From a virus (Duplodnaviria > Heunggongvirae > Uroviricota > Caudoviricetes): a DNA stretch of 11,456 nt. Location of the stretch: IMG/VR virus record IMGVR_UViG_2671180770_000008, positions 1 to 11,456 of that record, one strand, 5' to 3'. Position numbers and translations under genes: made by a program. Positions 1 through 11,456 of the stretch are shown one piece after another (positions within the stretch are counted from its first letter, which is position 1; each line of letters begins with the position of its first letter). Below the pieces are notes generated by a model that worked only from the letters and a program-made list of their open reading frames with translations, made no database searches and had not been told where the DNA came from.

Positions 1-47
1 TACAGTCCTTTTTTCTCCAGACATTCTGCCACGTGATCATGTAGCAT
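1..47 (-). CDS. 5' end of an unidentified CDS running off the left edge (MLHDHVAECLEKKGL...)
   Basis: ATG at 47..45 preceded by GGAGG (RC of 54..58) with a 6-nt spacer; only 15 codons visible, product not recognisable. Confidence 0.4.
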   Translation of the reverse strand, partial: MLHDHVAECLEKKGL

Positions 48-101
48 AAGTGACCTCCGATTATCTACAGACTGCCATCCTGAATTTACCTTCCCTTAAT
101 G

Positions 102-199
102 AAATAACAATAAAAAACAAACCACACAAAAACAATAAAATAACACACAAAAAAAACTAAATAATAAACAAAAATAATCACCTTATTTTATTATTTTTT
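102..199. repeat. 98-nt G-free A/C-rich low-complexity tract in the AT-rich region upstream of the edge ORF
   Basis: Direct reading: no G on the plus strand from 102 to 199 (aaataacaataaaaaacaaaccacacaaaaac...). Confidence 0.7.
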
Positions 200-281
200 G
201 AGGGGGCAATTACTGAACAAAAAACGCTGACTATATACTCAAAACCAAACAACTATTCTGCCAATCAGGTATCATGGCAAC

Positions 282-303
282 ACACGGAATTACCGTGTTT
301 TTG
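282..303 (+). terminator. Candidate Rho-independent terminator on the plus strand
   Basis: Stem acacgg (282..287) / ccgtgt (293..298), loop aatta, then ttttt (299..303). Confidence 0.4.
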
Positions 304-512
304 CCTTCTCTGCCCATACAATACGGGCATATACTTCATACTCTATTGTAATATTTCTATCCATGCGCCCCACTCCATTTACCTGTAAATAATATTCAAA
401 ATATTTATCACAGAAATCGTTTTTGTCCATGAACTGAGCACACTATAAAGTCCGGAACTGACTCTTTGTTAAATTACCTTAACGTTACCAGTAACACCTT
501 CATAACAAAACA

Positions 513-980
513 TCACGGTATACACTGGGTACGGATATATTCCTGTGCTCCTTCCAGTTGCTTCTGCATTGCCATCAGCCGTTCTCTGAGGATGAAATAA
601 TCCCGTTCAGCGGCTTCTGCCAGTCGGGGACCGGTTGCATTATCCACGCCGGAGGTGATGGGGGCTTTACGCAAGGAGCCTGGACAGTTGGCGTTGATGC
701 GCAGGCGCTTACGACCAGCGGCAACATCAGCACGCAGAGTTTCATTTTCAGCTCTCGCATCGGCTAATTCCCTCGAGTATCTGGCATCAAGTGCAGCGAC
801 ATCACGCTGGCGTACCTGCATATCAGTAATTGTCACGTTCGCCAGCTTCAGCTCACTGGCTTTTTTATCGCGTTGCGCTTTGTAGGTAATGGCGTTATCG
901 CGGTAATGATTCAGCCCCAGACTAAGCACACCACAGGCTACCAGCAGGACAATAATCACCACACACAGAACACGGTTCAT
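513..980 (-). CDS. Rz: Rz i-spanin (inner-membrane spanin subunit)
   Basis: 155 aa; N-terminal TM segment then coiled-coil; strong similarity to lambda Rz as I recall it ([43 protein letters not shown]); ATG at 980 preceded by GAGGGGGA. Confidence 0.93.
575..760 (-). CDS. Rz1: Rz1 o-spanin lipoprotein, embedded in the +1 frame of Rz
   Basis: 61 aa; lipobox LVVSAC, proline-rich [26 protein letters not shown] closely matching lambda Rz1; entirely nested inside Rz. Confidence 0.9.
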
Positions 981-987
981 ATCCCCC

Positions 988-1119
988 TCACCCCACCAGC
1001 CATGACAAAGTTAAGACGCGCCAGGCAGTGGAAAAGCAAATAGCAACCAGCATTAGTGAAAATGAAATGCCGACGATTACACAGAGGATCTTCGCCAGCG
1101 TTATGAGCTTGTCTGACAT
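988..1119 (-). CDS. 43-aa small hydrophobic protein ([43 protein letters not shown]), unknown function
   Basis: ATG at 1119 preceded by AGAGGA plus 6-nt spacer; stop TGA 990..988 lies 7 nt before the Rz start; one predicted TM helix. Below the ORF-track size cutoff. Confidence 0.45.
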
Positions 1120-1131
1120 GCTTAATCCTCT

Positions 1132-1314
1132 TCACGATTTCAACGCAATGACCAGTTTTGCCAGCCCATACAGCATCGGAGACACAGCAATACCGACCGC
1201 CACCCACTTAATAGCAAAAGCCAGCGCTCTGCTGACGTCATCAGTTACAGGCGCTTTCAGTTCAAGGCCGTTTTTCATAGTCAATCTCAACAGAATTCGT
1301 TTATACTTTCCCAT
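1132..1314 (-). CDS. 60-aa small protein with C-terminal TM helix (MGKYKRILLRLTMKNGLELKAPVTDDVSRALAFAIKWVAVGIAVSPMLYGLAKLVIALKS), unknown function
   Basis: Internal ATG of track ORF 1132..1392; the longer N-terminal extension reads through a terminator hairpin and is rejected; AGGGAG-like RBS upstream; stop 12 nt before the next RBS. Confidence 0.45.
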   Translation of the reverse strand: MGKYKRILLRLTMKNGLELKAPVTDDVSRALAFAIKWVAVGIAVSPMLYGLAKLVIALKS

Positions 1315-1351
1315 GTTCTCCCTTGCCTTACTCAAGGTCAGAAACACAAAA

Positions 1352-1380
1352 CCCCGTTTGCGGCCAACAAACGGGGTTTT
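1352..1380. terminator. Bidirectional intrinsic terminator
   Basis: Perfect 9-bp inverted repeat ccccgtttg (1352..1360) / caaacgggg (1368..1376), 7-nt loop, A-tract on the left and T-tract on the right. Confidence 0.7.
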
Positions 1381-1469
1381 ACTTTTATTCACTTAGTTTT
1401 TGCCAGTTCGCAGGATTTCGTGTTATCCGCCCGCGTTGGCCAACGTCATTTTTCAGCAAAATATTCTGC

Positions 1470-1860
1470 TTATCTGTCAATTCCCCAGCACGCCAGTGCA
1501 CTTTCCTGGTCTCGCCGGGATACCTGGCCGTAGCAATTATTTGAGCGGATACGGCAGTCTCTGCCACCGTCCTTAATCCACCAGCGAATCGCTTCGCAGG
1601 CACCTTTTCGATCACCTGCATTAATCCGTCTGTAAAACGTAGACGGGAAACACTTACCGGGGCCAATGTTATAAGGACAAAATGACGCGATACCCGCCTT
1701 CTGGGGTTCGGTCAGCGGTACTTTAATATTGCGCTCCACCCACTCCAGCGCCTTATCACGTTCAATGGCGTTACCCACCAATTTCCGGTGCCACAGTAAC
1801 AGTAATCTTATCCGGGTAATTATTTATCCCTTTAACAACCAGTTCGTATTTTTTCTTCAT
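1470..1860 (-). pseudogene. Disrupted endolysin: C-terminal ~100 aa of a GH24 phage lysozyme (RrrQ / Stx-phage R type) joined out of frame to an unrelated 29-codon ORF (MKKKYELVVKGINNYPDKITVTVAPEIGG)
   Basis: Frame 1470..1781 encodes NAIERDKALEWVERNIKVPLTEPQKAGIASFCPYNIGPGK...GACEAIRWWIKDGGRDC...ALACWGIDR, matching the C-terminal half of lambdoid lysozymes; there is no SAR/signal segment or catalytic Glu-Asp-Thr region; the ORF starting at 1860 (good RBS GGGGAGAG) stops at 1773..1771 in a different frame. Confidence 0.7.
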
Positions 1861-1864
1861 CGCT

Positions 1865-2080
1865 TTACTCTCCCCGCGCCGCCTTACGACGGTCCTCTCT
1901 GATTTTGAAATACAGGTTAGTCAGATACGTCAGCAGGCCAAACAGCAGACTCCCCAGCACACCTATCGCCACCCACTGGGACGGAGAGACTTTGTCCAGC
2001 AGCTGCAGTAACCAGTATCCCGTCCCCACCGCTGACGTGGTGTATGACACACCTGTTGTGATTTTTTCCATCTGGTACAT
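1865..2080 (-). CDS. S: Class II holin (S21-type pinholin), 71 aa, with dual-start motif
   Basis: [10 protein letters not shown]...[40 protein letters not shown] closely matches phage 21 S / EssD-EssQ holins; Met1 and Met4 dual start; RBS GGGAGA upstream. Confidence 0.92.
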
Positions 2081-2155
2081 ACCCCGTCTCCCGCAATCCG
2101 GAAGCTCACAACAACAGGAGGGGCATCAGCTCACACCGACAGCCCCTGCGTATGG

Positions 2156-2425
2156 TTACATCATCATTTCGCCGCCAGGCTGAGGCTCACTGCTACCGTC
2201 AGGCTGAGACACAACGCCATCTGAAACAGCACTGTCACCCGCGCCGTCTTCAGGCTCAGGAGCAGCCGGTCCCCCCAGCAGCTCATCCAGAATGGCATCC
2301 ACTTCAGCATCAAGACGCGCCTCAAGATTCTGGCGGAGTTGCTGTTTCAGTGCGCTTCTGACTTCTTCAGAGCGCAGGACGTCCTTCACTGCTTCAGCAG
2401 TGACCAGAGATTTTATTTCTGACAT
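2156..2425 (-). CDS. Hypothetical acidic protein, 89 aa (MSEIKSLVTAEAVKDVLRSEEVRSALKQQ...)
   Basis: Internal ATG of track ORF 2156..2581; the upstream extension overlaps the better-supported 60-aa gene in another frame; weak RBS. Confidence 0.5.
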   Translation of the reverse strand: MSEIKSLVTAEAVKDVLRSEEVRSALKQQLRQNLEARLDAEVDAILDELLGGPAAPEPEDGAGDSAVSDGVVSQPDGSSEPQPGGEMMM

Positions 2426-2462
2426 GGGATTTTCTCGTTGAAAGGTGTTGTTAAGAAAGTTG

Positions 2463-2645
2463 CTACGAAATGAGAGGCTCTTCGGGTTTTGTTCCGGCTG
2501 ACTGGCTGGCGCTGATTTTTTCCGCCGCCGCGGCATCAATCTTTTTGCGTATATAGTTCCGGATAACCTTATACCCGCCACTTACCAGATATAACGTGCA
2601 CACCACCGTGCAGAAATACAATAAAATAAGCTGTACAAATCTCAT
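2463..2645 (-). CDS. Small membrane protein, 60 aa (MRFVQLILLYFCTVVCTLYLVSGG...)
   Basis: ATG at 2645 preceded by GGGAGG; hydrophobic N-terminal helix. Confidence 0.55.
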   Translation of the reverse strand: MRFVQLILLYFCTVVCTLYLVSGGYKVIRNYIRKKIDAAAAEKISASQSAGTKPEEPLIS

Positions 2646-2739
2646 TATCCCTCCCGGTTATTGATATGGTGTTGACATCGTTAATACCTGTTGGTTAAAA
2701 AAGTGTCCTGCATGTTTTGCTTTGGATATAACGACATTT

Positions 2740-2787
2740 GCCGCCGGTTCTGGCTCCTTGTTTTCCCTGCCCCGGCGGCCTTTTTTT
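2740..2787 (+). terminator. Intrinsic terminator on the plus strand (antisense to the late operon)
   Basis: 8-bp GC stem gccgccgg (2740..2747) / ccggcggc (2772..2779) followed by ttttttt (2781..2787). Confidence 0.55.
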
Positions 2788-2792
2788 CCTGC

Positions 2793-4730
2793 TTACGGGT
2801 TATTCACTTCCACTGTTATACTTTCAATCAGCACCGGATATGTCGCACCGCTAGTGATATCGGTCACGCGCAATTTGTCTGCCGTAAACGTGCCGACCGG
2901 TGACTGTGACAGCATGAACGGCGTCCCGTCCTTACCATCAATGACCGGCGTCACCTCAATACTGTTGTTACCGGCAAAACGGAAGCCCAGCGTATGCCAT
3001 TCGTTATCAAATGCGCCGAATGACCCCAGCTTCGTGTTCTGACCAGCATTTCCCTTGTGGTACATCACATTAAGGTCTGTGGCATCGCTCTGTACGTAAA
3101 ACGACGCCAGCAGGTTATGACCGGCATTACCTTCCAGTGTGACGCCCTGAGGCAGTGAAGAAACCGGCCAGTACAGCGCCAGTGCGTACTGATTAGCTGT
3201 CAGTGTGCCATCAACTTTAAAACGACAACTGATAAGCCCGCCCTTCTCCAGCAGGTCTGCGCCATTACCGGCATCATGCTGCATAAACCACGAGGAACTT
3301 CCTGTCTGTTTGGTCCACCTCAGCGCCTTACCTCCTGCAGCACCTGCATCATCAACTACCAATGCACGCCCTCCTTCAGCTCCCCATCCCTGCGGATTCA
3401 GTAAACCACCTGACTCTGTTGCACGGTAATAAAGCAGCGTTGTCACTGATTTCCCGTCCGTTGACGGTGTTGATGGTGTGTCCGGTGACGGCTTCTCATC
3501 CGGCGGCATCACAACCTGTTCCCCACCCACCAGTTCAGCCGTCCGTCCTGCATGGAGAAGAATCGCTGAGGCAAGACGGTCAGAAATAATCCCCCTGCGT
3601 GCCCATGAGCTGAAATGGCTCGCACGGTCTGCTGACGTCCAGTTTGCCGACGTCCGGGAGGCCGCACCGTAATATCCTGATGCCGGAATATCCGGGTCTT
3701 CTTCCGGTTTGTTCGTCGGGACATTTGCTCCGTTCTCATCGGTCATGAACGGCACAAAGTGAATATTCTTTTCCGTTTTGTTTTTGTAACTGCCGTACAC
3801 CGTCTGGTAAGTGGATTCGCTCTTCTGCTTCCAGAAATAAGTTGTGTCTCCACATATCCAGGGAACACCGTCAGCAGAACCACCAGCGCACTGTCCCACC
3901 ATATCTGCAAGGTCCGTACGATATTGTTCCACTACTTCTGTAAAACGGGCTGTGTGATTTGCTGGCGTTCCGTCAAAGTCAAATTCCCCCTGCATCCACA
4001 CCACGGCAAGCAGCACATTTTTCGGGTTCTTTGCCAGCGCGGCTTTTGTACGACCGATGAGATCCTTATACAGCGGCCTGCCCACACCCCAGCGGGTATA
4101 ACTCTCTGAGGCACCGGTCACGTCACTGTATGTTCCATCTGCCCCGGTGGTGAAAGCTGAACCACCACGGCAGCACGGAACCAGAAGAATACCCGCATTC
4201 GCCGGTATAAACGGCAGCAGCTTTTTGGCAATATGCAGCCCGTGCCCCACGGTTCCGTACTGACCTTTCGACAGGTCAGCTTTCGGATGGTTAAGACGGC
4301 TCATGTCCTGTACATCATGCAGACAGTGGTCTGCCGGAATAATGTCGTTATATTTACAGGGAGCGCCATCCGGCGTCACTGTGCTGCGACGAGCCAGTTG
4401 CTTTATACGCGGGTCAGGACGGTCATATGTCTGCGGCAGAGGAAGCCCCTCACCGTAAGCCATGCCGTTCGACTGCCCGGCCAGTGGAATAACGTAGTAA
4501 TAATCTGGCTCCGTGGTGACCACTCCCGGATAGCCACCATCCCCCGTGCCGGGCACAACCACTGGCGTGGTCACATCCCCCTCCGCGGCAATCGCCTGCA
4601 TCAGGGTATAAGGGGTTATGGCCACAGGACTACCAAACGGCTGCCAGCCCTCTTTCAGTTTGTGTGTCAGCTTTTCCGCAAGATCTGACGGCGACGCCGC
4701 CCTGACAACATCATAATGTTTAATCGACAT
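2793..4730 (-). CDS. nanS: NanS-p-type prophage sialate O-acetylesterase, 645 aa
   Basis: Strong RBS GGGAGA; N-terminal MSIKHYDVVRAASPSDLAEKL... segment, esterase-type motif YYVIPLAGQSNGMAYG, size and position (between Q and S) as in the NanS-p proteins of E. coli O157 prophages. Confidence 0.88.
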   Translation of the reverse strand: MSIKHYDVVRAASPSDLAEKLTHKLKEGWQPFGSPVAITPYTLMQAIAAEGDVTTPVVVPGTGDGGYPGVVTTEPDYYYVIPLAGQSNGMAYGEGLPLPQTYDRPDPRIKQLARRSTVTPDGAPCKYNDIIPADHCLHDVQDMSRLNHPKADLSKGQYGTVGHGLHIAKKLLPFIPANAGILLVPCCRGGSAFTTGADGTYSDVTGASESYTRWGVGRPLYKDLIGRTKAALAKNPKNVLLAVVWMQGEFDFDGTPANHTARFTEVVEQYRTDLADMVGQCAGGSADGVPWICGDTTYFWKQKSESTYQTVYGSYKNKTEKNIHFVPFMTDENGANVPTNKPEEDPDIPASGYYGAASRTSANWTSADRASHFSSWARRGIISDRLASAILLHAGRTAELVGGEQVVMPPDEKPSPDTPSTPSTDGKSVTTLLYYRATESGGLLNPQGWGAEGGRALVVDDAGAAGGKALRWTKQTGSSSWFMQHDAGNGADLLEKGGLISCRFKVDGTLTANQYALALYWPVSSLPQGVTLEGNAGHNLLASFYVQSDATDLNVMYHKGNAGQNTKLGSFGAFDNEWHTLGFRFAGNNSIEVTPVIDGKDGTPFMLSQSPVGTFTADKLRVTDITSGATYPVLIESITVEVNNP

Positions 4731-4816
4731 CGAATTTCTCCCGTGTACAGGAACAGAGTTAAAAAGCCGGAACCGGAATCAAATCACAGGATGACCATCT
4801 GCCAGTGGCTGGTCGT

Positions 4817-4843
4817 AAAAAAAAGGCCGCGCCATGCGCAGCC
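4817..4843 (-). terminator. Intrinsic terminator on the minus strand, upstream of nanS-p
   Basis: Minus-strand RNA GGCUGCGCAUGGCGCGGCC (8-bp stem, 3-nt loop) followed by UUUUUUUU (RC of 4817..4824). Confidence 0.7.
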
Positions 4844-5044
4844 GGAAATAAAGGGATAACGATGATAGTTTGAGAAAAACAGAAATAACACTTTTGTGGC
4901 AAAGCATGGTGCCGGGTGCCTCCCGGTGAATTCAGTACCAGCACCTGAATCCGCGATTATCCCATATACCTGGTTGCTGATTGCCCCTCCGCACAGGGGG
5001 ATTCACCATGCAGTAGTATTTTTAATAAACAGTAAACAAAAAAA

Positions 5045-5212
5045 TCAAGCATTATGCAGGCTGTTTCTTTTTATCACCGGCCACAGCAATACCACAATGC
5101 CGCAGACCAGCCCCCCATCCGCCAGCACCGACATGATTCTGCTGGTGAAATCCACCATCACCACCAGAAACAGCAGGAGTGCAGCCACAGCCAGGCGCAG
5201 TTTTACCGTCAC
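5045..5212 (-). CDS. 55-aa small membrane protein (VTVKLRLAVAALLLFLVVMVDFTSRIMSVLADGGLVCGIVVLLWPVIKRNSLHNA), GTG start overlapping the TerB-like stop
   Basis: GTG 5212..5210 overlaps TGA 5211..5209 (GTGA); GGAG 8 nt upstream; two hydrophobic stretches. Below the ORF-track cutoff. Confidence 0.4.
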   Translation of the reverse strand: MTVKLRLAVAALLLFLVVMVDFTSRIMSVLADGGLVCGIVVLLWPVIKRNSLHNA

Positions 5213-5680
5213 AGGTGATTCTCCAGACGAAGCCCCAGAACACCGGCAATCTCTTCCAGCACCTTGCGCTCTTCCGGCTCAATTTCGCCGTCTGCCTCCG
5301 CAATGGCCACCGCCACATCCAGCACATCTTCCGCTTCACGCGTATCGTGTTTCACATCCTCGATCTCACGTAACGCCGCACGACGACCAATTTTAAAGTT
5401 CGTATCCAGCTGACCGATAATGGTTGCGCTAATCGCATTAATTTCTGACGTAAACGCGGACAGCGCTGGCTGATTACGCAGTACCTGTTCGATCTTCGCT
5501 TTCTAGGAAGCCTCACATTCACCATCTGCACAGGCCACCAGGTATGCGGCGTTAATCACCGTCTGTGCCAGATCGCGTTTCTCAAACTTTCCTTTTTCCG
5601 GTTAACGTGACACACCAATAACTCTTGTCGAAAAAGCCAGCAAGCTGAAAGACCGGTATTCACAACCACCAGCGCGTTTA
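5209..5680 (-). pseudogene. TerB-family (tellurite-resistance TerB-like) gene disrupted by an in-frame amber codon and a 5' frameshift
   Basis: Frame 5601..5209 encodes ...EKGKFEKRDLAQTVINAAYLVACADGECEAS*KAKIEQVLRN...DVLDVAVAIAEADGEIEPEERKVLEEIAGVLGLRLENHL with TAG at 5505..5503; the N-terminal part (..GFFDKS..) sits in another frame; no usable start codon. Confidence 0.55.
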
Positions 5681-5704
5681 CTGTACTGGCGTGATTTCAG
5701 TCAT

Positions 5705-5727
5705 AAAAAAACCCGCCTGGCGACGGG
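5705..5727 (-). terminator. tR'-like terminator of the short pR' leader transcript
   Basis: Minus-strand RNA CCCGUCGCCAGGCGGG (6-bp stem, 4-nt loop) followed by UUUUUUU. Confidence 0.75.
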
Positions 5728-5763
5728 TGTAAAAAATCTTCTAACGTCAGGCATAAAACGCCC

Positions 5764-5803
5764 ATCGTTAGGGCAAATTTACCACAGATTCGGGAAAAAT
5801 CAA
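5764..5803 (-). promoter_or_regulatory. pR'-like late promoter with qut / pause element
   Basis: On the minus strand: -35 TTGATT (5803..5798), 16-bp spacer, -10 TAAATT (5781..5776), then TGCCCT AACGAT GGG, closely resembling my recollection of the lambda pR' -10 / pause region (GGGTAAATTTGACTCAACGATGGG); starts directly after the Q stop codon. Confidence 0.7.
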
Positions 5804-5808
5804 CAAAG

Positions 5809-6630
5809 CTATCTGGTCACCTTTTTCAGTTGTTGTTCTGCCCATGCTTCTTCAATATCAAACTGCACCACCAGCGTATCGTAAAAACGTTTAACTGTTT
5901 TTTTCCATGTATCAAGAGATATGGCATCGGTTACATTACATATGGCATTAAATGCCTCCGTTGAAGGTAATCTTTCATAGCCACGACCACCACAACGCTG
6001 GCAGTCTCTGATAACAGGCATACCACGTTTTACCGACTCTTCACGATGAATGGCAACACCGCGCCCACGACAATCTTTACAGGCGGTGGAAACCTCCCCC
6101 TTCCCTCCACACTCCGGACAGGCAACTTTTACCACCTCCCTGACTTTTTTCCATTCCTCCCAGTAAGACGGATACACGCCTTTTGTGCACTTTGCCCACA
6201 CTGGCGGCTTACCATCCGGATACTGGATCTTGTTTGTAAAAACCTCGCTTTCAATAAATTTTTTTCCGTGACAACAGGGGCACTGTTTTTTGCTCGCCGC
6301 GCTACGGGCATAATCTTCAAACGCATACGAAGCCATAATACGCATCACTGCCGGTTTTATTTCTGCCGGGAGTTTTTTTAACGCCGCCACGCGATCACAC
6401 CGACTGAGTGCATATTCTGTCAGCAATTCTGTTGCCCGCTCTCTGTCATTCATACTAATGCCCATTTTCCCAAGGAACGCAGAAAACCCCATCTCAGCCC
6501 AATTCTGTGTCATGCCCTGCGCGGCCATCACATCAGTGATACTCAGCGTATCTTTCGACGTTGAGGCCGATGCATCAGTCAGGCCGGGGGATTTTGGGGA
6601 GTAGTATTTCGGTAAATCTTCCAGTTTCAT
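5809..6630 (-). CDS. Late-gene antiterminator Q (Q-like, zinc-binding), 273 aa
   Basis: Immediately upstream of the pR'-like promoter; several CxxC pairs (CPCCHGKK, CPECGGKG, CKDCRGRG, CQRCGGRG); position equivalent to quuQ / quuD. Confidence 0.8.
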   Translation of the reverse strand: MKLEDLPKYYSPKSPGLTDASASTSKDTLSITDVMAAQGMTQNWAEMGFSAFLGKMGISMNDRERATELLTEYALSRCDRVAALKKLPAEIKPAVMRIMASYAFEDYARSAASKKQCPCCHGKKFIESEVFTNKIQYPDGKPPVWAKCTKGVYPSYWEEWKKVREVVKVACPECGGKGEVSTACKDCRGRGVAIHREESVKRGMPVIRDCQRCGGRGYERLPSTEAFNAICNVTDAISLDTWKKTVKRFYDTLVVQFDIEEAWAEQQLKKVTR

Positions 6631-7001
6631 TTTTTGACCTGCCCTCCAAGCATTATGGGGTAAATCTTCACCCCCAGACGTCCACCAGATACTGGCTGAG
6701 CACGAACGATATTGATTTCATCAAACTGCTCATCGTCCATTAGCAACCCCGCATGCGTCAGCGCATCCAGCGGCGCTTTCAGAATATTGTCCAGGTCACG
6801 GCGGCGCTTATCCGGTGGCTCGGCAATAATCTTTATCGCCAGCCTTCCGGACAGGCTTAATTTCAGCCGCTGCTGGCGAACAATAAGCGCCACAGCCCGG
6901 CGATAACGCTCACCGGCTTTTGATACAAAATATGTGCTGCCACGACGTCGCCAGTAGGTGTTCACCGTCGGCGGGTAAAGCAAAACAAACTCTATACGCA
7001 T
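6627..7001 (-). CDS. rusA: RusA-family Holliday-junction resolvase
   Basis: PDKRRRDLDNILKAPLDALTHAGLLMDDEQF and SGGRLGVKI align with E. coli RusA ([40 protein letters not shown]); RBS GAGG; stop overlaps the Q start (ATGA). Confidence 0.92.
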   Translation of the reverse strand: MRIEFVLLYPPTVNTYWRRRGSTYFVSKAGERYRRAVALIVRQQRLKLSLSGRLAIKIIAEPPDKRRRDLDNILKAPLDALTHAGLLMDDEQFDEINIVRAQPVSGGRLGVKIYPIMLGGQVKK

Positions 7002-7013
7002 CAGTAACCTCTT

Positions 7014-8063
7014 TTACCCGAGCACGCCGGTTGCAAAGGCGTGATCAAGAAAACGAAAAATTAAATCAACCTGGGAACCATGCTTTTCTTCGAACGCCAG
7101 CGGATCCGCATGAAGCTCGTTGTGATGCTCCCGACACAGCGGTAGCGTGAAAATATCGTGGGATTTTGTTCCCATTCCGCCCTGACCATGACCAATCAGA
7201 TGATGAGGATCGTCCGCTGGCTTACCACAACACGCACACGGCTGTGTCTTTACCCAGCGTGTGTATTTCTCATTTACCCAGCGGCGACGTTTAGGTCGTT
7301 TCATGAAGGATTCCGGAGACTCCGGATCAACGGCAATGCTGACCACCGTCTTTTCCTGTGGTGGGTTCTGTTGCTGGTGGGTGTGAGACGGTAGCGCAAT
7401 ATTTTTTGTGCGCTGCTTCAGTATGCTGGTGGCGGTCTGTTCTCCCGGTATGATGTCGCTTTCACGGTATACGGAGCGGATTTTTTCCGCACGCAACCCC
7501 AGCGAAAGACGTAATACCGCTTCCGGTAGCGCGTCCGCCACCTGATTGCGGACCGCCCACCAGGATAATTCAGCCAGAGATAATTCACGCTCCTGTGCGC
7601 CATTCATTGCGTGACGGATGATGTCAATCATCCAGGCGGCCAGATTCTGTTGAGCAAGTTGATCCAGTGAATCAGATGTCTGCTCCCGCAGCTGGTTGTC
7701 GCAGTGCCAGCACAACACCATCGCGCCGGTACCGTAACGGTGAATGACGGTTTCGCTGTGATGATAATCACCGTGTAGCCACTGGCAGGATTTCACGTGA
7801 CGTAATAACCAGTCAGACAGTGCACCAGCGCCACCCGCAGCACGGATCACCCGCTCATCGCTGAAAAATGGCAGTAGTGATTTATCTTCCGCCAGCGGCT
7901 GGTGAACGGCAGGTACAACCCCGGACGGCAGAGCTCGCATGCTTTTTGGTTCCGGCTCCACCAGTATTCTGCCGTTATGGAATGCTGACATTGATTCACG
8001 GCCTGGCTTAACGATAACCAGACCGAGTTCCGGTACCAGAACAGGTCGAAGTAATACCCGCAC
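7014..8063 (-). CDS. DUF968-family prophage protein (YdfU-like) with C-terminal HNH-like Cys/His motif
   Basis: 349 aa, position as ydfU in Qin (rem - ydfU - quuQ); motif CACCGKPADDPHHLIGHGQGGMGTKSHDIFTLPLCREHHNELH; GTG start 8063 with GGAGG upstream, overlapping the upstream stop. Confidence 0.65.
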   Translation of the reverse strand: MRVLLRPVLVPELGLVIVKPGRESMSAFHNGRILVEPEPKSMRALPSGVVPAVHQPLAEDKSLLPFFSDERVIRAAGGAGALSDWLLRHVKSCQWLHGDYHHSETVIHRYGTGAMVLCWHCDNQLREQTSDSLDQLAQQNLAAWMIDIIRHAMNGAQERELSLAELSWWAVRNQVADALPEAVLRLSLGLRAEKIRSVYRESDIIPGEQTATSILKQRTKNIALPSHTHQQQNPPQEKTVVSIAVDPESPESFMKRPKRRRWVNEKYTRWVKTQPCACCGKPADDPHHLIGHGQGGMGTKSHDIFTLPLCREHHNELHADPLAFEEKHGSQVDLIFRFLDHAFATGVLG

Positions 8064-8064
8064 A

Positions 8065-8343
8065 TTACCTCCAGATCCGTTGCTGGAATGTGCGGGACGG
8101 ACGCGGTGGCCGTTCGGAGTAAGGGAGCCTGACGGAGATTATCCAGTGACGGTAGTCGAGGCTAAGGGCTTTTTTAACCTCGCATCCGCGCCTGCGGTAA
8201 CACTGAATGAGCCATTCGGCCTGTTCTTCAGTGCATGGGGGATGCTGGTACCAGTCAGATTTGAATGCGTGAAAACACCGTCCGCGCCTGCTGGCAAAGA
8301 CGGCAGAATCATCAGAATTGTATAATTTGGTATCGTGCGCCAT
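8065..8343 (-). CDS. Hypothetical Cys-containing protein, 92 aa, in the position of rem
   Basis: Internal ATG of track ORF 8065..8424 (MAHDTKLYNSDD...); the longer extension would read through the hok terminator. Confidence 0.5.
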   Translation of the reverse strand: MAHDTKLYNSDDSAVFASRRGRCFHAFKSDWYQHPPCTEEQAEWLIQCYRRRGCEVKKALSLDYRHWIISVRLPYSERPPRPSRTFQQRIWR

Positions 8344-8415
8344 CGGTTGTCTCTGCTGGCGCAGCAGGTGCCAGTTGTTCAGGCTGGCGTGCGAATTGTA
8401 AACCAGAATGCCAGG

Positions 8416-8440
8416 AAAAAACAAAACCCGCCGAAGCGGG
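8416..8440 (-). terminator. Intrinsic terminator at the 3' end of the hok mRNA
   Basis: Minus-strand RNA CCCGCUUCGGCGGG (5-bp stem, UUCG loop) followed by UUUUGUUUUUU. Confidence 0.7.
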
Positions 8441-8510
8441 TTAAGTGCGGGTGCGTTGAGGATGCCTGATTCATCAGAGGTGGCGAGGGATTTCTCCCTC
8501 GCCGGGTCTC

Positions 8511-8666
8511 TTACTCCTCAGGTTCGTAAGCTGTGAAGACAGCGACCTCCGTCTGGCCGGTTCGGATTCGTACCTCGCAGAGGTCTTTCCTCGTTACCAG
8601 TGCCGTCACTATGACGGTTAAACAGATGACGATCAGGGCGATTAACATCGCCTTTTGCTGCTTCAT
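8511..8666 (-). CDS. hokD: Hok-family type I toxin (HokD/RelF-like), 51 aa
   Basis: MKQQKAMLIALIVICLTVIVTALVTRKDLCEVRIRTGQTEVAVFTAYEPEE, which I recall as identical or near-identical to E. coli HokD; RBS AAGGAG 9 nt upstream. Confidence 0.9.
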   Translation of the reverse strand: MKQQKAMLIALIVICLTVIVTALVTRKDLCEVRIRTGQTEVAVFTAYEPEE

Positions 8667-8871
8667 AGCCTGCTTCTCCTTGCCTTTCGGCACGTAAGAG
8701 GCTAACCTACATGTGTCTAGCATGAAATTGACCTCAGATTAATGTTAGGCGTCTTGCAGGACGCGTAATGTTAACTGGGGCTTTTCTCTGTCTGCCTTTT
8801 GGTGTTCATGCCTGAGGCAGATAGCCTCAAGCACCCGCAGCAATTCTACTTAACTCTCGCTTTACAGCAAA
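8667..8871 (-). promoter_or_regulatory. hok mRNA promoter and leader: -10 TAGAAT (8848..8843), tac-like hairpin, mok-like upstream reading frame (ATG 8723) in frame with hok
   Basis: Leader UUGAGGCUAUCUGCCUCA... parallels the plasmid R1 hok 5' end; the 5' element (RC of 8825..8840) is complementary to a 3' element at 8445..8461 (fbi-type long-range pairing). Confidence 0.6.
8715..8790 (+). ncRNA. Putative Sok-like antisense RNA (approximate extent)
   Basis: Plus-strand promoter candidate TTGCCT (8680..8685), 17 bp, TAACCT (8703..8708); transcript would be antisense to the mok-like start/RBS; no clean terminator found, 3' end uncertain. Confidence 0.25.
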
Positions 8872-8882
8872 CCGTTTTTACC

Positions 8883-8904
8883 CGATATGGGAATTCCCAT
8901 ATCG
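8883..8904. repeat. 22-bp perfect palindrome CGATATGGGAATTCCCATATCG
   Basis: Direct reading; centred on GAATTC; between the 34-aa ORF stop and the hok promoter -35. Confidence 0.8.
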
Positions 8905-8912
8905 TAATGAAT

Positions 8913-9017
8913 TCAGTTCCCTAGTCGATCCATCAAAAACACAACCAGGCAGTAAACGCCCACAACAGCAACAACAGCCAGCGCACCTTCCATTGCCAGT
9001 GAGATATCATCCGACAT
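8913..9017 (-). CDS. 34-aa small hydrophobic peptide (MSDDISLAMEGALAVVAVVGVYCLVVFLMDRLGN)
   Basis: ATG 9017 preceded by AAAGGAGGG with a 4-nt spacer; single predicted TM helix; verified codon by codon. Below the ORF-track cutoff. Confidence 0.45.
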   Translation of the reverse strand: MSDDISLAMEGALAVVAVVGVYCLVVFLMDRLGN

Positions 9018-9052
9018 ATTCCCTCCTTTGGTGTTAATCCCGGCGAACGTTT

Positions 9053-9136
9053 TTACCCCCACCGACAAATAACATATACTAAAAAAGCGATAGCCATAGC
9101 AACGCCTGTAATTGCAAATGCTTCAGGCCAGTTCAT
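9053..9136 (-). CDS. 27-aa small hydrophobic peptide (MNWPEAFAITGVAMAIAFLVYVICRWG)
   Basis: ATG 9136..9134 overlaps the TGA stop of the upstream DUF551 gene (ATGA); GGAGG 7 nt upstream; single TM helix. Confidence 0.45.
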   Translation of the reverse strand: MNWPEAFAITGVAMAIAFLVYVICRWG

Positions 9137-9717
9137 TGGCGCACCTCCTGCGGCGGTTCTGGTAGCGGCATCCAGTCGGTTACATTGCGGCTCTGTGTTT
9201 CGAAAAATTCATCACCATCACGGACTACATCAAAAAACTCACCGTCTCGATATTGCGCATAAAGAACGAATGCGCCATCACATAAAATAATTACGTGCTG
9301 ACCGTCATCCGGCATTCGCTCACTACAGCTTATCCAACCATCCAGAGTTACCGGATAGTTGGTTGACGTTTCCGAGATTTCCCGAAAATTATTGGTTGAC
9401 GAACCCTTCTTTTCCCGAAAGTTTCCAGCCTGAAGCATGGCGGCGCTGTCTGGCGGGGCAGCATATAGCGGCACGTATATTTCCGGTTCCTTATCAGCAC
9501 CGGGTTGCTCTTCCAGTGAGAATGTCTTTCCGGTAAATCGATTCATATAAAGCACGGGCTCTGCTTCCAGCGAAGCCTGAGCAACAAGGGCCAGTGCTAA
9601 ATCCAACTCAATTGCCTCGAGAGAATTTTTGAATGCTGTCTGTTTTACTGCAAATTTCATCGCCTTTACATTTTCACTAACATGACTGATTAACTGCTCT
9701 TTTGTAAAAGTGGTCAT
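9133..9717 (-). CDS. DUF551-domain phage protein, 194 aa from ATG 9717 (alternative GTG start at 9777)
   Basis: C-terminal DUF551-like signature WISCSERMPDDGQHVIIL...DWMPLPEPP; AGGAG RBS 6 nt before ATG 9717. Confidence 0.7.
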   Translation of the reverse strand: MTTFTKEQLISHVSENVKAMKFAVKQTAFKNSLEAIELDLALALVAQASLEAEPVLYMNRFTGKTFSLEEQPGADKEPEIYVPLYAAPPDSAAMLQAGNFREKKGSSTNNFREISETSTNYPVTLDGWISCSERMPDDGQHVIILCDGAFVLYAQYRDGEFFDVVRDGDEFFETQSRNVTDWMPLPEPPQEVRQ

Positions 9718-9773
9718 CTCATTCTCCTTTGATGCGAATGCCAGCGACAATTGAAGCCTGATAGCTAATTCAC

Positions 9774-10169
9774 TCACAATACCGCCTCCTGAAAATTGCC
9801 CTGATAGAACGCCAGTACACGCAGCATAACTTCACTCTTCCGGCACTCGCCACAGATTATGTTCTGTTGTCTGTCGTAGCGGTGTATTTCTCCGTCTGGT
9901 AACTTTCGAATCAATGTCTGGTCGGTTGTTTTCTCCGCTGCCTTACGCCATACGCGATACACCTGTTCTGATGTAAAAACACCGTATTTACCGGGCATGT
10001 ATAAATTGCCGCAAGCCAGTACATCCACAAGGCAACGTCTGACTGAATGCCAGCCTGCTCCCGTCGCTCTCTCCAGTTGTGATATCGTCATGCGTTCATT
10101 TTTGCGTACCAGCCCGATAATTCGGGCCTTCAGTTCTTCACGCTGTTCGTGTGTAAAAGGTTTCGCCAT
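9774..10169 (-). CDS. Hypothetical protein, 131 aa, with predicted N-terminal HTH-like segment
   Basis: ATG 10169 with GGAGG at a 5-nt spacer; RMTISQLERATGAGWHSVRRCLVDVL resembles an HTH; function not recognised. Confidence 0.7.
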   Translation of the reverse strand: MAKPFTHEQREELKARIIGLVRKNERMTISQLERATGAGWHSVRRCLVDVLACGNLYMPGKYGVFTSEQVYRVWRKAAEKTTDQTLIRKLPDGEIHRYDRQQNIICGECRKSEVMLRVLAFYQGNFQEAVL

Positions 10170-10184
10170 AAGCGCCTCCGGCTA

Positions 10185-10910
10185 TCACTTTTCCGACACA
10201 ATACGACCGGATGAATCGACAATCTGCCGAACAATATCCCAGTGCTTGTTCAACTCCCGCAGCGCGGCGCAGACTCGCTCCCACTTCTGAACCTGACCTT
10301 TTGCTCGGCGCAGCTCGCGGTTAGCCACATGCAGCGATGGTAGAATCAGGTCATCTGCTTTCGTTTCAGTGAACGATTGCTGCAACTTCACAATGTCCTC
10401 CACCGCTTCTGTTTTAATTTCTTCCTGTGCAGCCGTTTCCTGGACTGGTAACGCAACACCTGCTGGCTGAGGAAGGGCTTTACCCTCCGTTTCAGCTACG
10501 GATGCAGCTTTCTGCTCTGCCGGTAAATCAACGCCCGGTATGCAGTAACGAAATTTACCATCCTGATTCACGCGAATCAGACGCCCTTTGCTGATTGCCA
10601 TTGCCAGCGATGAATTCGCACGGCGGGAGGTAATTCCGAACATCAATGCCAGCTCATCCGCCGTTTGTGGGCCATGATGTTCAATCGCCTCAGTCAGCAT
10701 TTGCGCTGTCACTTTCGGTACCGGTGACACTGGTTCACTTTCACCAGTCTGAGTCAGCCACCACATCGACCCCTTGTTATCCGCTTCACCACGGCGCTTC
10801 AGTTTCCACAGTTCGTTGACAGCATCTTCGCGGCTGATTCCAAGGCGCGATGCCACTACCTGTGAAGAGGCTTTTTTCAGTGCTTTCAGTGCGTCAAATA
10901 CAGTTTCCAT
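10185..10910 (-). CDS. Hypothetical protein, 241 aa, with two winged-helix-like segments and an acidic linker
   Basis: ATG 10910 (METVFDALK...) preceded by GGAGGA; track ORF begins 6 codons earlier at a TTG; function not recognised. Confidence 0.7.
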
Positions 10911-10931
10911 TAAAACGTCCTCCAACAAAAA

Positions 10932-11456
10932 TTACTTCACAACCCTCTGATTGCTGACATTTGGACGCCAGCTATCCCAGTTAAACGTCACCCATCGACC
11001 ACCGCTCATGGTCATCCGGTCCATAATCCTCTCACCAAGAAGCGTGCTCATTGCGGCATGATTCAGGTTTGTTAACATCCCGACACTGCACAGTGATGCT
11101 GTCCGGCGATCAATTATCTGGTGTAATACCACCTGCTCGTTTTTCGTCTCCCGCTGAACGCCTATTTCATCCAGGACCAGCAAATCAACCCCGCAAAGCT
11201 CCTGTAAAAATTTTTCCCCGGATTTGCCGTTGTCGTAGCTGTCATGCAACACGCTCATGACATCAGACACGGTGACGATAATCACGCTGCGCCCCTTCGC
11301 CATCAGCCGGTTACCCATCGCCGCTGCAAGGTGATTTTTCCCGGTGCCGGTTTTACCGCTGAACACAAAATTCGTGCACCCGGTCATCAGTTCGTCAGCT
11401 ATGGATTTGGCCTGGCTCAGCGCGTATTTTTGCCCGTCGTTCTGCACCTGATAATT
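10932..11456 (-). CDS. DnaC-like helicase loader / replication protein (IstB-type AAA+), C-terminal part; N-terminus beyond the window
   Basis: Walker A GKTGTGKNHLA, Walker B LLVLDEIG, and tail GERIMDRM...WVTFNWDSWR align with E. coli DnaC (GPVGTGKTHLA, LLVIDEIG, GERVMDRM...WVIFNWDSYR). Confidence 0.9.
   Translation of the reverse strand, partial: NYQVQNDGQKYALSQAKSIADELMTGCTNFVFSGKTGTGKNHLAAAMGNRLMAKGRSVIIVTVSDVMSVLHDSYDNGKSGEKFLQELCGVDLLVLDEIGVQRETKNEQVVLHQIIDRRTASLCSVGMLTNLNHAAMSTLLGERIMDRMTMSGGRWVTFNWDSWRPNVSNQRVVK

Follow-up and report, generated by a model that had tools for sequence, protein, structure and literature searches.

Independent assortment of three early-right accessory genes of a Rac-like Escherichia coli prophage, among them an intact ydaW allele and a putative lambda ren homologue

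The gene order O-P-ren of bacteriophage lambda places ren just after the replication genes, and Toothman and Herskowitz reportedly found in 1980 that Ren gives lambda resistance to Rex exclusion, the phenotype said to define ren. Here we analyze an 11,456-nucleotide (nt) stretch of Caudoviricetes DNA (positions 1 to 11,456 of IMG/VR record IMGVR_UViG_2671180770_000008; hereafter the window), which is a Rac-like lambdoid prophage of Shiga-toxigenic Escherichia coli (STEC), and focus on three adjacent genes that encode DUF1627, DUF977 and DUF551 family proteins (genes 1, 2 and 3) between a DnaC-like helicase-loader gene and a hok locus. The sharper question that this locus raises concerns the loader-adjacent slot of Rac- and lambda-like prophages, which is filled by Ren, DUF977, DUF1627/YdaW or an 84-amino-acid (aa) helix-turn-helix (HTH) protein.

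Relatives of all three genes have been described. Two-hybrid signals link Ren to the Rex proteins, with an O-Rex signal also recorded, and Thomason et al. describe ren as "likely involved in DNA replication" (bioRxiv 10.1101/2021.04.19.439022). The family of gene 1 includes YdaW (b1361) of the K-12 Rac prophage, counted among 58 uncharacterised E. coli transcription factors (PMC9308461); the sole functional datum for YdaW is that multicopy ydaW is among the prophage genes that block the retron-Sen2 toxin RcaT (bioRxiv 10.1101/2020.06.22.160242), a result obtained with the truncated K-12 protein and not with the intact form encoded by gene 1. DUF551 is a portable domain found in Ea22 variant V2 and in YfdS with no assigned activity (PMC10834534, PMC4776307), and the pro-lysogenic phenotype of Ea22 and the oxidative-stress phenotype of YfdS have not been mapped to it.

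All long open reading frames (ORFs) of the window lie on the minus strand. The features at issue, in the order of transcription, are as follows.

11447-10932, minus strand: C-terminal part of a DnaC-like helicase-loader gene (YdaV homologue); the ORF leaves the window end
10910-10185, minus strand: gene 1, DUF1627/YdaW family, 241 aa, ATG start, from ORF and ribosome-binding site, Pfam PF07789
10169-9774, minus strand: gene 2, DUF977, Ren-like, 131 aa, ATG start, Pfam PF06163
9773-9718, minus strand: spacer of 56 nt from the gene 2 stop to the gene 3 start
9717-9133, minus strand: gene 3, DUF551, 194 aa, likely ATG start, Pfam PF04448

The ATG of gene 1 lies 21 nt past the loader stop at 10932 and has GGAGG 8 nt on its 5' side, 15 nt separate gene 1 from gene 2, and gene 2 is also preceded by GGAGG, so that the three tightly packed ORFs with good ribosome-binding sites of the initial annotation are borne out in coordinates and GGAGG-type sites, all three on the minus strand. 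Its flanking genes also stand, DnaC-like upstream and hok downstream, with the correction that two tiny ORFs intervene between gene 3 and hok.

We sampled gene neighbourhoods as the 80 closest IMG/VR loci for gene 1 and for gene 2, with 12 further gene 2 loci from species-representative genomes; the ORFs of each locus were annotated with hidden Markov models built from our own family alignments, and the immediate neighbours were clustered. We find that the three genes do not travel together from one prophage to the next, and that they assort independently. A helicase-loader gene precedes DUF1627 in 69/70 related contigs and may be of either type (DnaC-like, 26/70; lambda-P-like, PF06992, 43/70), while the gene on the 3' side of DUF1627 is DUF977 in 22 of 74 contigs and the 84-aa HTH gene (phrog_323) in 49 of 74. 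The gene on the 5' side of DUF977 in viral contigs is DUF1627 (57/72), a DnaC-like gene (8/72) or a P-like gene (7/72); among the species-representative genomes it is DUF1627 in one of ten and a replication gene in the other nine. DUF977 is followed in turn by DUF551 (42/74), by a phrog_1621 gene whose protein is zinc-ribbon-like (a CxxC motif, seen by eye) and coiled-coil (20/74), or by other genes (12/74). By these counts, DUF977 comes after DUF1627 in some relatives and right after the last replication gene in others, a position comparable with that of ren behind P in lambda, and the slot right behind the helicase-loader gene holds Ren-type winged-helix genes. The initial annotation had taken the three genes for one block and had named two observations that would speak against this, occurrence of the genes independently of one another and matches to characterised housekeeping phage functions; the first is what the neighbourhoods give, and the block falls on it, while matches of the second kind were not found.

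The junctions themselves tell the same story. In 80 loci, and with no exception, the last ~10 residues of DUF1627 predict which gene comes next: a tail ending ..SGRIVSEK is followed by DUF977 and a tail ending ..TATREQQR by the 84-aa HTH gene, and the loader type assorts freely with both tails. This complete co-variation, taken with the free assortment of the loader, places a mosaic junction inside the 3' end of gene 1. The pairing of tail and downstream gene could be a recombination scar or could reflect partner specificity. On the other side of gene 2, the same ~55 nt (window 9718-9773) precede a DUF551-type gene (atgaccactttt...) in some related loci and a phrog_1621 gene (atggaaataaaa...) in others, the switch of downstream gene falling within a few bases of the start codon; this mosaic junction at the ribosome-binding site and start codon of gene 3 is a typical lambdoid module boundary. 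All three junctions are shown to be recombination points. The gene 1 junction can also be viewed in the DNA (~10185-10250, minus strand; compare 6592-6682 of the related locus L021), where the alleles are alike and then diverge into different tails, one of them ..ILRDITATREQQR.

Across 5426 complete E. coli genomes, near-identical DNA was counted both at a coverage of at least 80% and as any match. At the stricter threshold the DUF1627 gene is present in 842 genomes (2628 with any match), the DUF977 gene in 469 (487), the DUF551 gene in 382 (2376, plasmids included) and the whole 2.46-kb stretch in 372 (3664). The families are already known, as DUF1627, DUF977 and DUF551 in RefSeq and in Pfam and PHROGs, and the arrangement is unremarkable; between roughly one tenth and one half of complete E. 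coli genomes contain matching DNA, the share differing from gene to gene, and the finding matters little as it stands.

Gene 2 appears, from its sequence, to be a distant homologue of lambda Ren. It matches Pfam DUF977 over the full model (PF06163, 1-134/134; E = 9.3e-71, 236.6 bits against a cut-off of 22.1) and matches phrog_142, "Ren-like exclusion protein", over profile positions 1-115/116 (E = 1.4e-42), a profile that lambda Ren itself matches over positions 11-110/116 (E = 1.6e-41). The two proteins align directly by BLASTP (E = 1e-5, 28% identity over 87 residues with gaps) and have in common a C-terminal ECRxSxxMxRVLAxY motif, which belongs to a C-terminal half that is nearly invariant in the DUF977 family. 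The predicted structure of gene 2 has an N-terminal winged helix, as the HTH-like reading of this 131-aa protein had anticipated, with generic structural neighbours (Zalpha, MarR and ArsR) and a C-terminal half modelled at low confidence. Like lambda Ren, the gene 2 protein would combine an N-terminal winged helix with a gene position just after the replication genes of a PR operon; unlike Ren, it is 35 aa longer and carries an extra conserved LPDGEIRRYDR segment, and in the window DUF1627 stands between the loader gene and the Ren-like gene, whereas in lambda ren follows P. A genome-wide scan with the DUF977 alignment finds 12 loci only, all in Escherichia/Shigella or in metagenome-assembled genomes that are likely contaminated. 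One 204-aa database protein (P0303) joins the DUF1627 C-terminal hairpin to a full DUF977 via the translated 15-nt spacer; we rejected it as a functional fusion, since it arises by reading through the stop codon and the spacer on just one contig, probably through a stop-codon mutation or a sequencing error.

Gene 1 is an intact form of K-12 Rac YdaW. It matches Pfam DUF1627 over the whole model (PF07789, 1-155/155, residues 76-230; E = 4.8e-81, 270.5 bits against a cut-off of 28.1) and phrog_630 over its full length (E = 3.5e-115), and its first 151 residues, which span both winged helices, show 56% identity to K-12 YdaW. The two share the DUF1627 family and the position after ydaV, and differ in that the K-12 protein, truncated by the Rac deletion to 186 aa, is without the conserved C-terminal hairpin that gene 1 retains. 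The family is small, and 1.84 billion representatives yield just 146 clusters of it at 50% identity. An AlphaFold2 model built from 33 diverse family members (mean predicted local distance difference test score of 80) places winged helices at residues 1-55 and 69-124, a disordered region at ~125-190 and a basic helical hairpin at 193-240; both winged helices are basic as well, and the linker has a net charge of -8, in keeping with the two winged-helix segments and acidic linker first proposed for this 241-aa protein. Invariant positions across the DUF1627 alignment are confined to L34, W50 and R201, the best-conserved stretch is the C-terminal EIRRTKxxLxxLEKLR, and the recognition helices vary.

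A Foldseek search of the PDB with residues 1-125 of the gene 1 model returns tandem winged-helix proteins as best matches (E = 3.5e-5 to 2e-3), among them DIP2311, ScpB, ESCRT-II subunits, the SelB C-terminus and AlkX/YcaQ. The predicted fold of this segment resembles theirs, at 14-20% identity and with low template modelling scores (0.2-0.3) that arise because the relative orientation of the two domains is not fixed; gene 1 also has no partner such as ScpA encoded nearby, and the model points to a likeness of fold only. The winged-helix parts of gene 1 further give weak PHROG matches, residues 71-120 to phrog_142 (E = 2.3e-4), 2-77 to phrog_633 and 3-60 to phrog_1687, all of which lambda Ren matches too. 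Paralogy of genes 1 and 2 was considered and set aside: hhalign gives a generic 45-column winged-HTH match with a probability of 36% and BLASTP gives nothing, which amounts to no specific relationship.

Gene 3 carries a C-terminal DUF551 domain matched over the full Pfam model (PF04448, 1-68/68; E = 1.1e-20, 74.7 bits against a cut-off of 22), as first annotated, and matches phrog_60 (E = 9.9e-45), with a variable N-terminal part that corresponds to phrog_660/5117. The mechanically called ORF begins at GTG 9777, overlaps the gene 2 stop and encodes 214 aa, whereas ATG 9717 is preceded by AAGGAG and is the start chosen by the Prokaryotic Genome Annotation Pipeline (PGAP) in a 99.4%-identical genome. 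As the ~55-nt spacer is kept before two different genes, GTG 9777 is unlikely to be the true start and 9718-9773 is spacer rather than coding sequence, so that gene 3 likely starts at ATG 9717 and encodes 194 aa; the domain occupies residues 147-210 of the longer ORF, or 127-190 counted from ATG 9717. The protein is acidic, with an isoelectric point of 4.5. Its closest described counterparts, Ea22 variant V2 of Stx phages and YfdS of CPS-53, are likewise predominantly acidic proteins with a C-terminal PF04448 domain; gene 3 differs from Ea22 in that its N-terminal part is without the Ead/Ea22 coiled-coil signature and in that it sits in the early-right operon, whereas Ea22 is encoded in the exo-xis region. 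At 91% identity, window 9087-9361, which takes in the 3' part of gene 3 (9133-9361) with its DUF551 domain, matches DNA of Stx2a phages that spans the 3' end of an ead/Ea22-like gene; that gene adjoins int/xis and belongs to the other early operon. A ubiquitin-like segment at gene 3 residues 50-113 (window 9380-9570) was suggested by phmmer matches to PDB polyubiquitin (E down to 3e-15), and was rejected: a single repeat reaches ~5 bits, for an independent E-value of more than 100, di-ubiquitin comes to E = 0.01-0.03, and the low E-values result from sub-threshold matches summed over tandem repeats, an artefact and not homology.

We consider it probable, if far from certain, that these are three separate early-right accessory genes of a Rac-like prophage, chance neighbours in a mosaic and not one system, with genes 1 and 2 perhaps serving in replication-linked anti-exclusion. 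The part of this reading that concerns independence and known families is well supported, each gene belonging to a catalogued family found largely in Escherichia/Shigella lambdoid prophages (a restriction examined for DUF977 only). The anti-exclusion mechanism, for which the analysis draws on lambda Ren genetics and the ydaW overexpression screen, is tentative and to our mind possible rather than probable. Transcription and translation of all three genes would go together with those of the replication genes, making their products delayed-early. The variable winged-helix domains of genes 1 and 2 would recognise their targets, and the conserved C-terminal segments would supply a common activity, in DUF1627 through the basic helical hairpin with its invariant R201 and in DUF977 through LPDGEIRRYDR...ECRKSxxMxRVLAFY, which is shared with Ren; this activity would most plausibly shield phage replication from Rex- or retron-type exclusion and abortive infection. 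Gene 3 would be an unrelated, acidic adaptor-type protein. The initial annotation held that none of the three could be assigned a function, which is right in that the families are without demonstrated function and slightly too strong given the apparent Ren homology of gene 2 and the identity of gene 1 as an intact YdaW.

Several observations weigh against this interpretation. The neighbourhood fractions count contigs and not independent events, come from redundant E. coli isolates and are biased to close relatives, and the closest DUF977 relatives carry DUF1627 upstream in 57/72 contigs; genes 1 and 2 may therefore be paired in function, if more loosely. The basis for anti-exclusion is, on our analysis, homology to one genetically defined protein, Ren, together with one overexpression screen of a truncated YdaW. 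The Pfam DUF977 model gives no match to lambda Ren at E up to 1, which makes the relationship of gene 2 to Ren a distant one, and a fold search of the BFVD viral models for this link returns nothing at E ≤ 0.001. Genes 1 and 2 find no match in PADLOC or NCBIfam; across all three proteins, PADLOC-DB gives weak hits only (E ≥ 0.003, under 15 bits) and NCBIfam none.

If genes 1 and 2 are instead replication accessories, their winged helices would bind the origin, the initiator or the loader/DnaB and tune initiation or helicase loading. The position of DUF1627 behind a loader in 69/70 contigs and of DUF977 behind a loader or DUF1627 fits this, as do the basic winged helices and C-terminal hairpin of gene 1, the resemblance of its tandem winged-helix fold to nucleic-acid or complex-scaffolding proteins (ScpB, SelB and AlkX), and the Ren-Rex and O-Rex two-hybrid signals with the proposed role of ren in DNA replication (bioRxiv 10.1101/2021.04.19.439022). 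One and the same DUF1627 body stands behind two unrelated loader types, however, which speaks against any one loader as its specific partner; DUF1627 or DUF977 is missing from many related prophages whose loaders are the same, so that replication can do without either; and conservation of the recognition helices is poor. We regard this alternative as rather unlikely. The same variable recognition helices count against genes 1 and 2 as plain transcription factors that control prophage or host genes in a sequence-specific way, a role suggested by their winged-helix folds, by structural neighbours of MarR, ArsR and IclR type and by the listing of YdaW among predicted E. coli transcription factors (PMC9308461). 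Here the conserved portions are the non-HTH C-terminal parts, the tandem module finds its best structural neighbours among scaffolding or RNA-binding winged helices and not among dimeric repressors, and no operator-like repeats or promoter were noticed nearby, although no dedicated repeat search was made; such a role seems improbable to us.

A single co-functional anti-defence or host-takeover cassette comprising all three genes is the least credible alternative, and we judge it very improbable indeed, even though the genes are tightly spaced with no internal promoter or terminator above chance, their exact arrangement recurs in 372 complete E. coli genomes and no other arrangement is as frequent as the trio among the closest DUF977 relatives. 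Clonal STEC prophages explain the recurrence. Each junction is a recombination point; DUF977 comes after DUF1627 in only 22/74 contigs, is found directly behind a loader without DUF1627 and is itself followed by at least four other gene types; and the DUF551 domain turns up as well on plasmids and, within the early-left operon, in Ea22-like genes. An extension of the anti-exclusion reading would make DUF1627/YdaW a second, unrecognised Ren-type factor, a tandem winged-helix protein that sits behind any loader and, with DUF977 or an alternative HTH partner that varies in step with the last ~10 residues of DUF1627, shields replication from abortive-infection systems that sense it, such as Rex or retron toxin-antitoxin systems; we consider the proposal speculative and unlikely. 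The widespread STEC prophage alleles are intact versions, in contrast to the truncated K-12 ydaW, and could be used to ask whether the slot encodes counter-measures to replication-sensing abortive infection.

The loader fragment matches PF01695 (IstB; E = 5.2e-18) and phrog_50, DnaC-like loader (E = 5.9e-65), and is 80% identical to K-12 YdaV, while on the 3' side the three genes are followed by the two tiny ORFs, hok/sok, and then DUF968, RusA and antiterminator Q. At 99.4% identity, the 2.46-kb stretch recurs in prophages on the chromosomes of bovine and human STEC strains; in strain UTAK-1 the near-identical prophage adjoins potC and reads integrase, exonuclease, dicB, LexA family protein, Cro/CI family regulator, YdaT, a hypothetical protein in the Rac slot of YdaU, DnaC-like, DUF1627, DUF977, DUF551, hokD, DUF968, RusA, Q, lysis genes and terminase. 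The three genes sit in the early-right (PR-equivalent) operon between the replication module and the Q gene. Ren-equivalent is a better name than the earlier nin-equivalent for this slot, which begins right behind the helicase loader. Within 8400-11456, matches to promoter-like and terminator-like patterns stay within the shuffled expectation, which fits co-transcription of the three genes with the replication genes.

The remaining elements of the window that we assigned are as follows.

9136-9053, minus strand: tiny hydrophobic ORF, 27 aa (MNWPEAFAITGVAMAIAFLVYVICRWG), its ATG overlapping the DUF551 stop (ATGA); not annotated by PGAP
9017-8913, minus strand: tiny hydrophobic ORF, 34 aa (MSDDISLAMEGALAVVAVVGVYCLVVFLMDRLGN), with AAAGGAGG upstream; hypothetical in RefSeq
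8836-8511, minus strand: complete hok/sok type I toxin-antitoxin locus; Hok ORF is hokD in the near-identical genome; Rfam sok model 1-157/157
5531-5209, minus strand: TerB-family gene; the near-identical genome annotates it as a pseudogene that carries an internal stop
5037-4871, minus strand: STnc100 small RNA (sRNA), Rfam 101.6 bits, E = 1e-21
4730-2793, minus strand: SASA-family carbohydrate esterase, 645 aa, upstream of the lysis genes

Both tiny ORFs recur in many related loci by tblastn. Hok matches PF01848 (E = 3e-23) and the sok RNA scores 113 bits in Rfam, and a longer in-frame upstream ORF of 70 aa at this locus matches a "MokW-like" PHROG. The STnc100 match lies between the SASA-family esterase gene and the TerB-family pseudogene/DUF3927 region. 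The prophage sRNAs PasA and PasC are reported typically to have RusA, TerB and DUF1627 genes within 10 kb (10.64898/2026.05.13.724894), a neighbourhood that fits the window.

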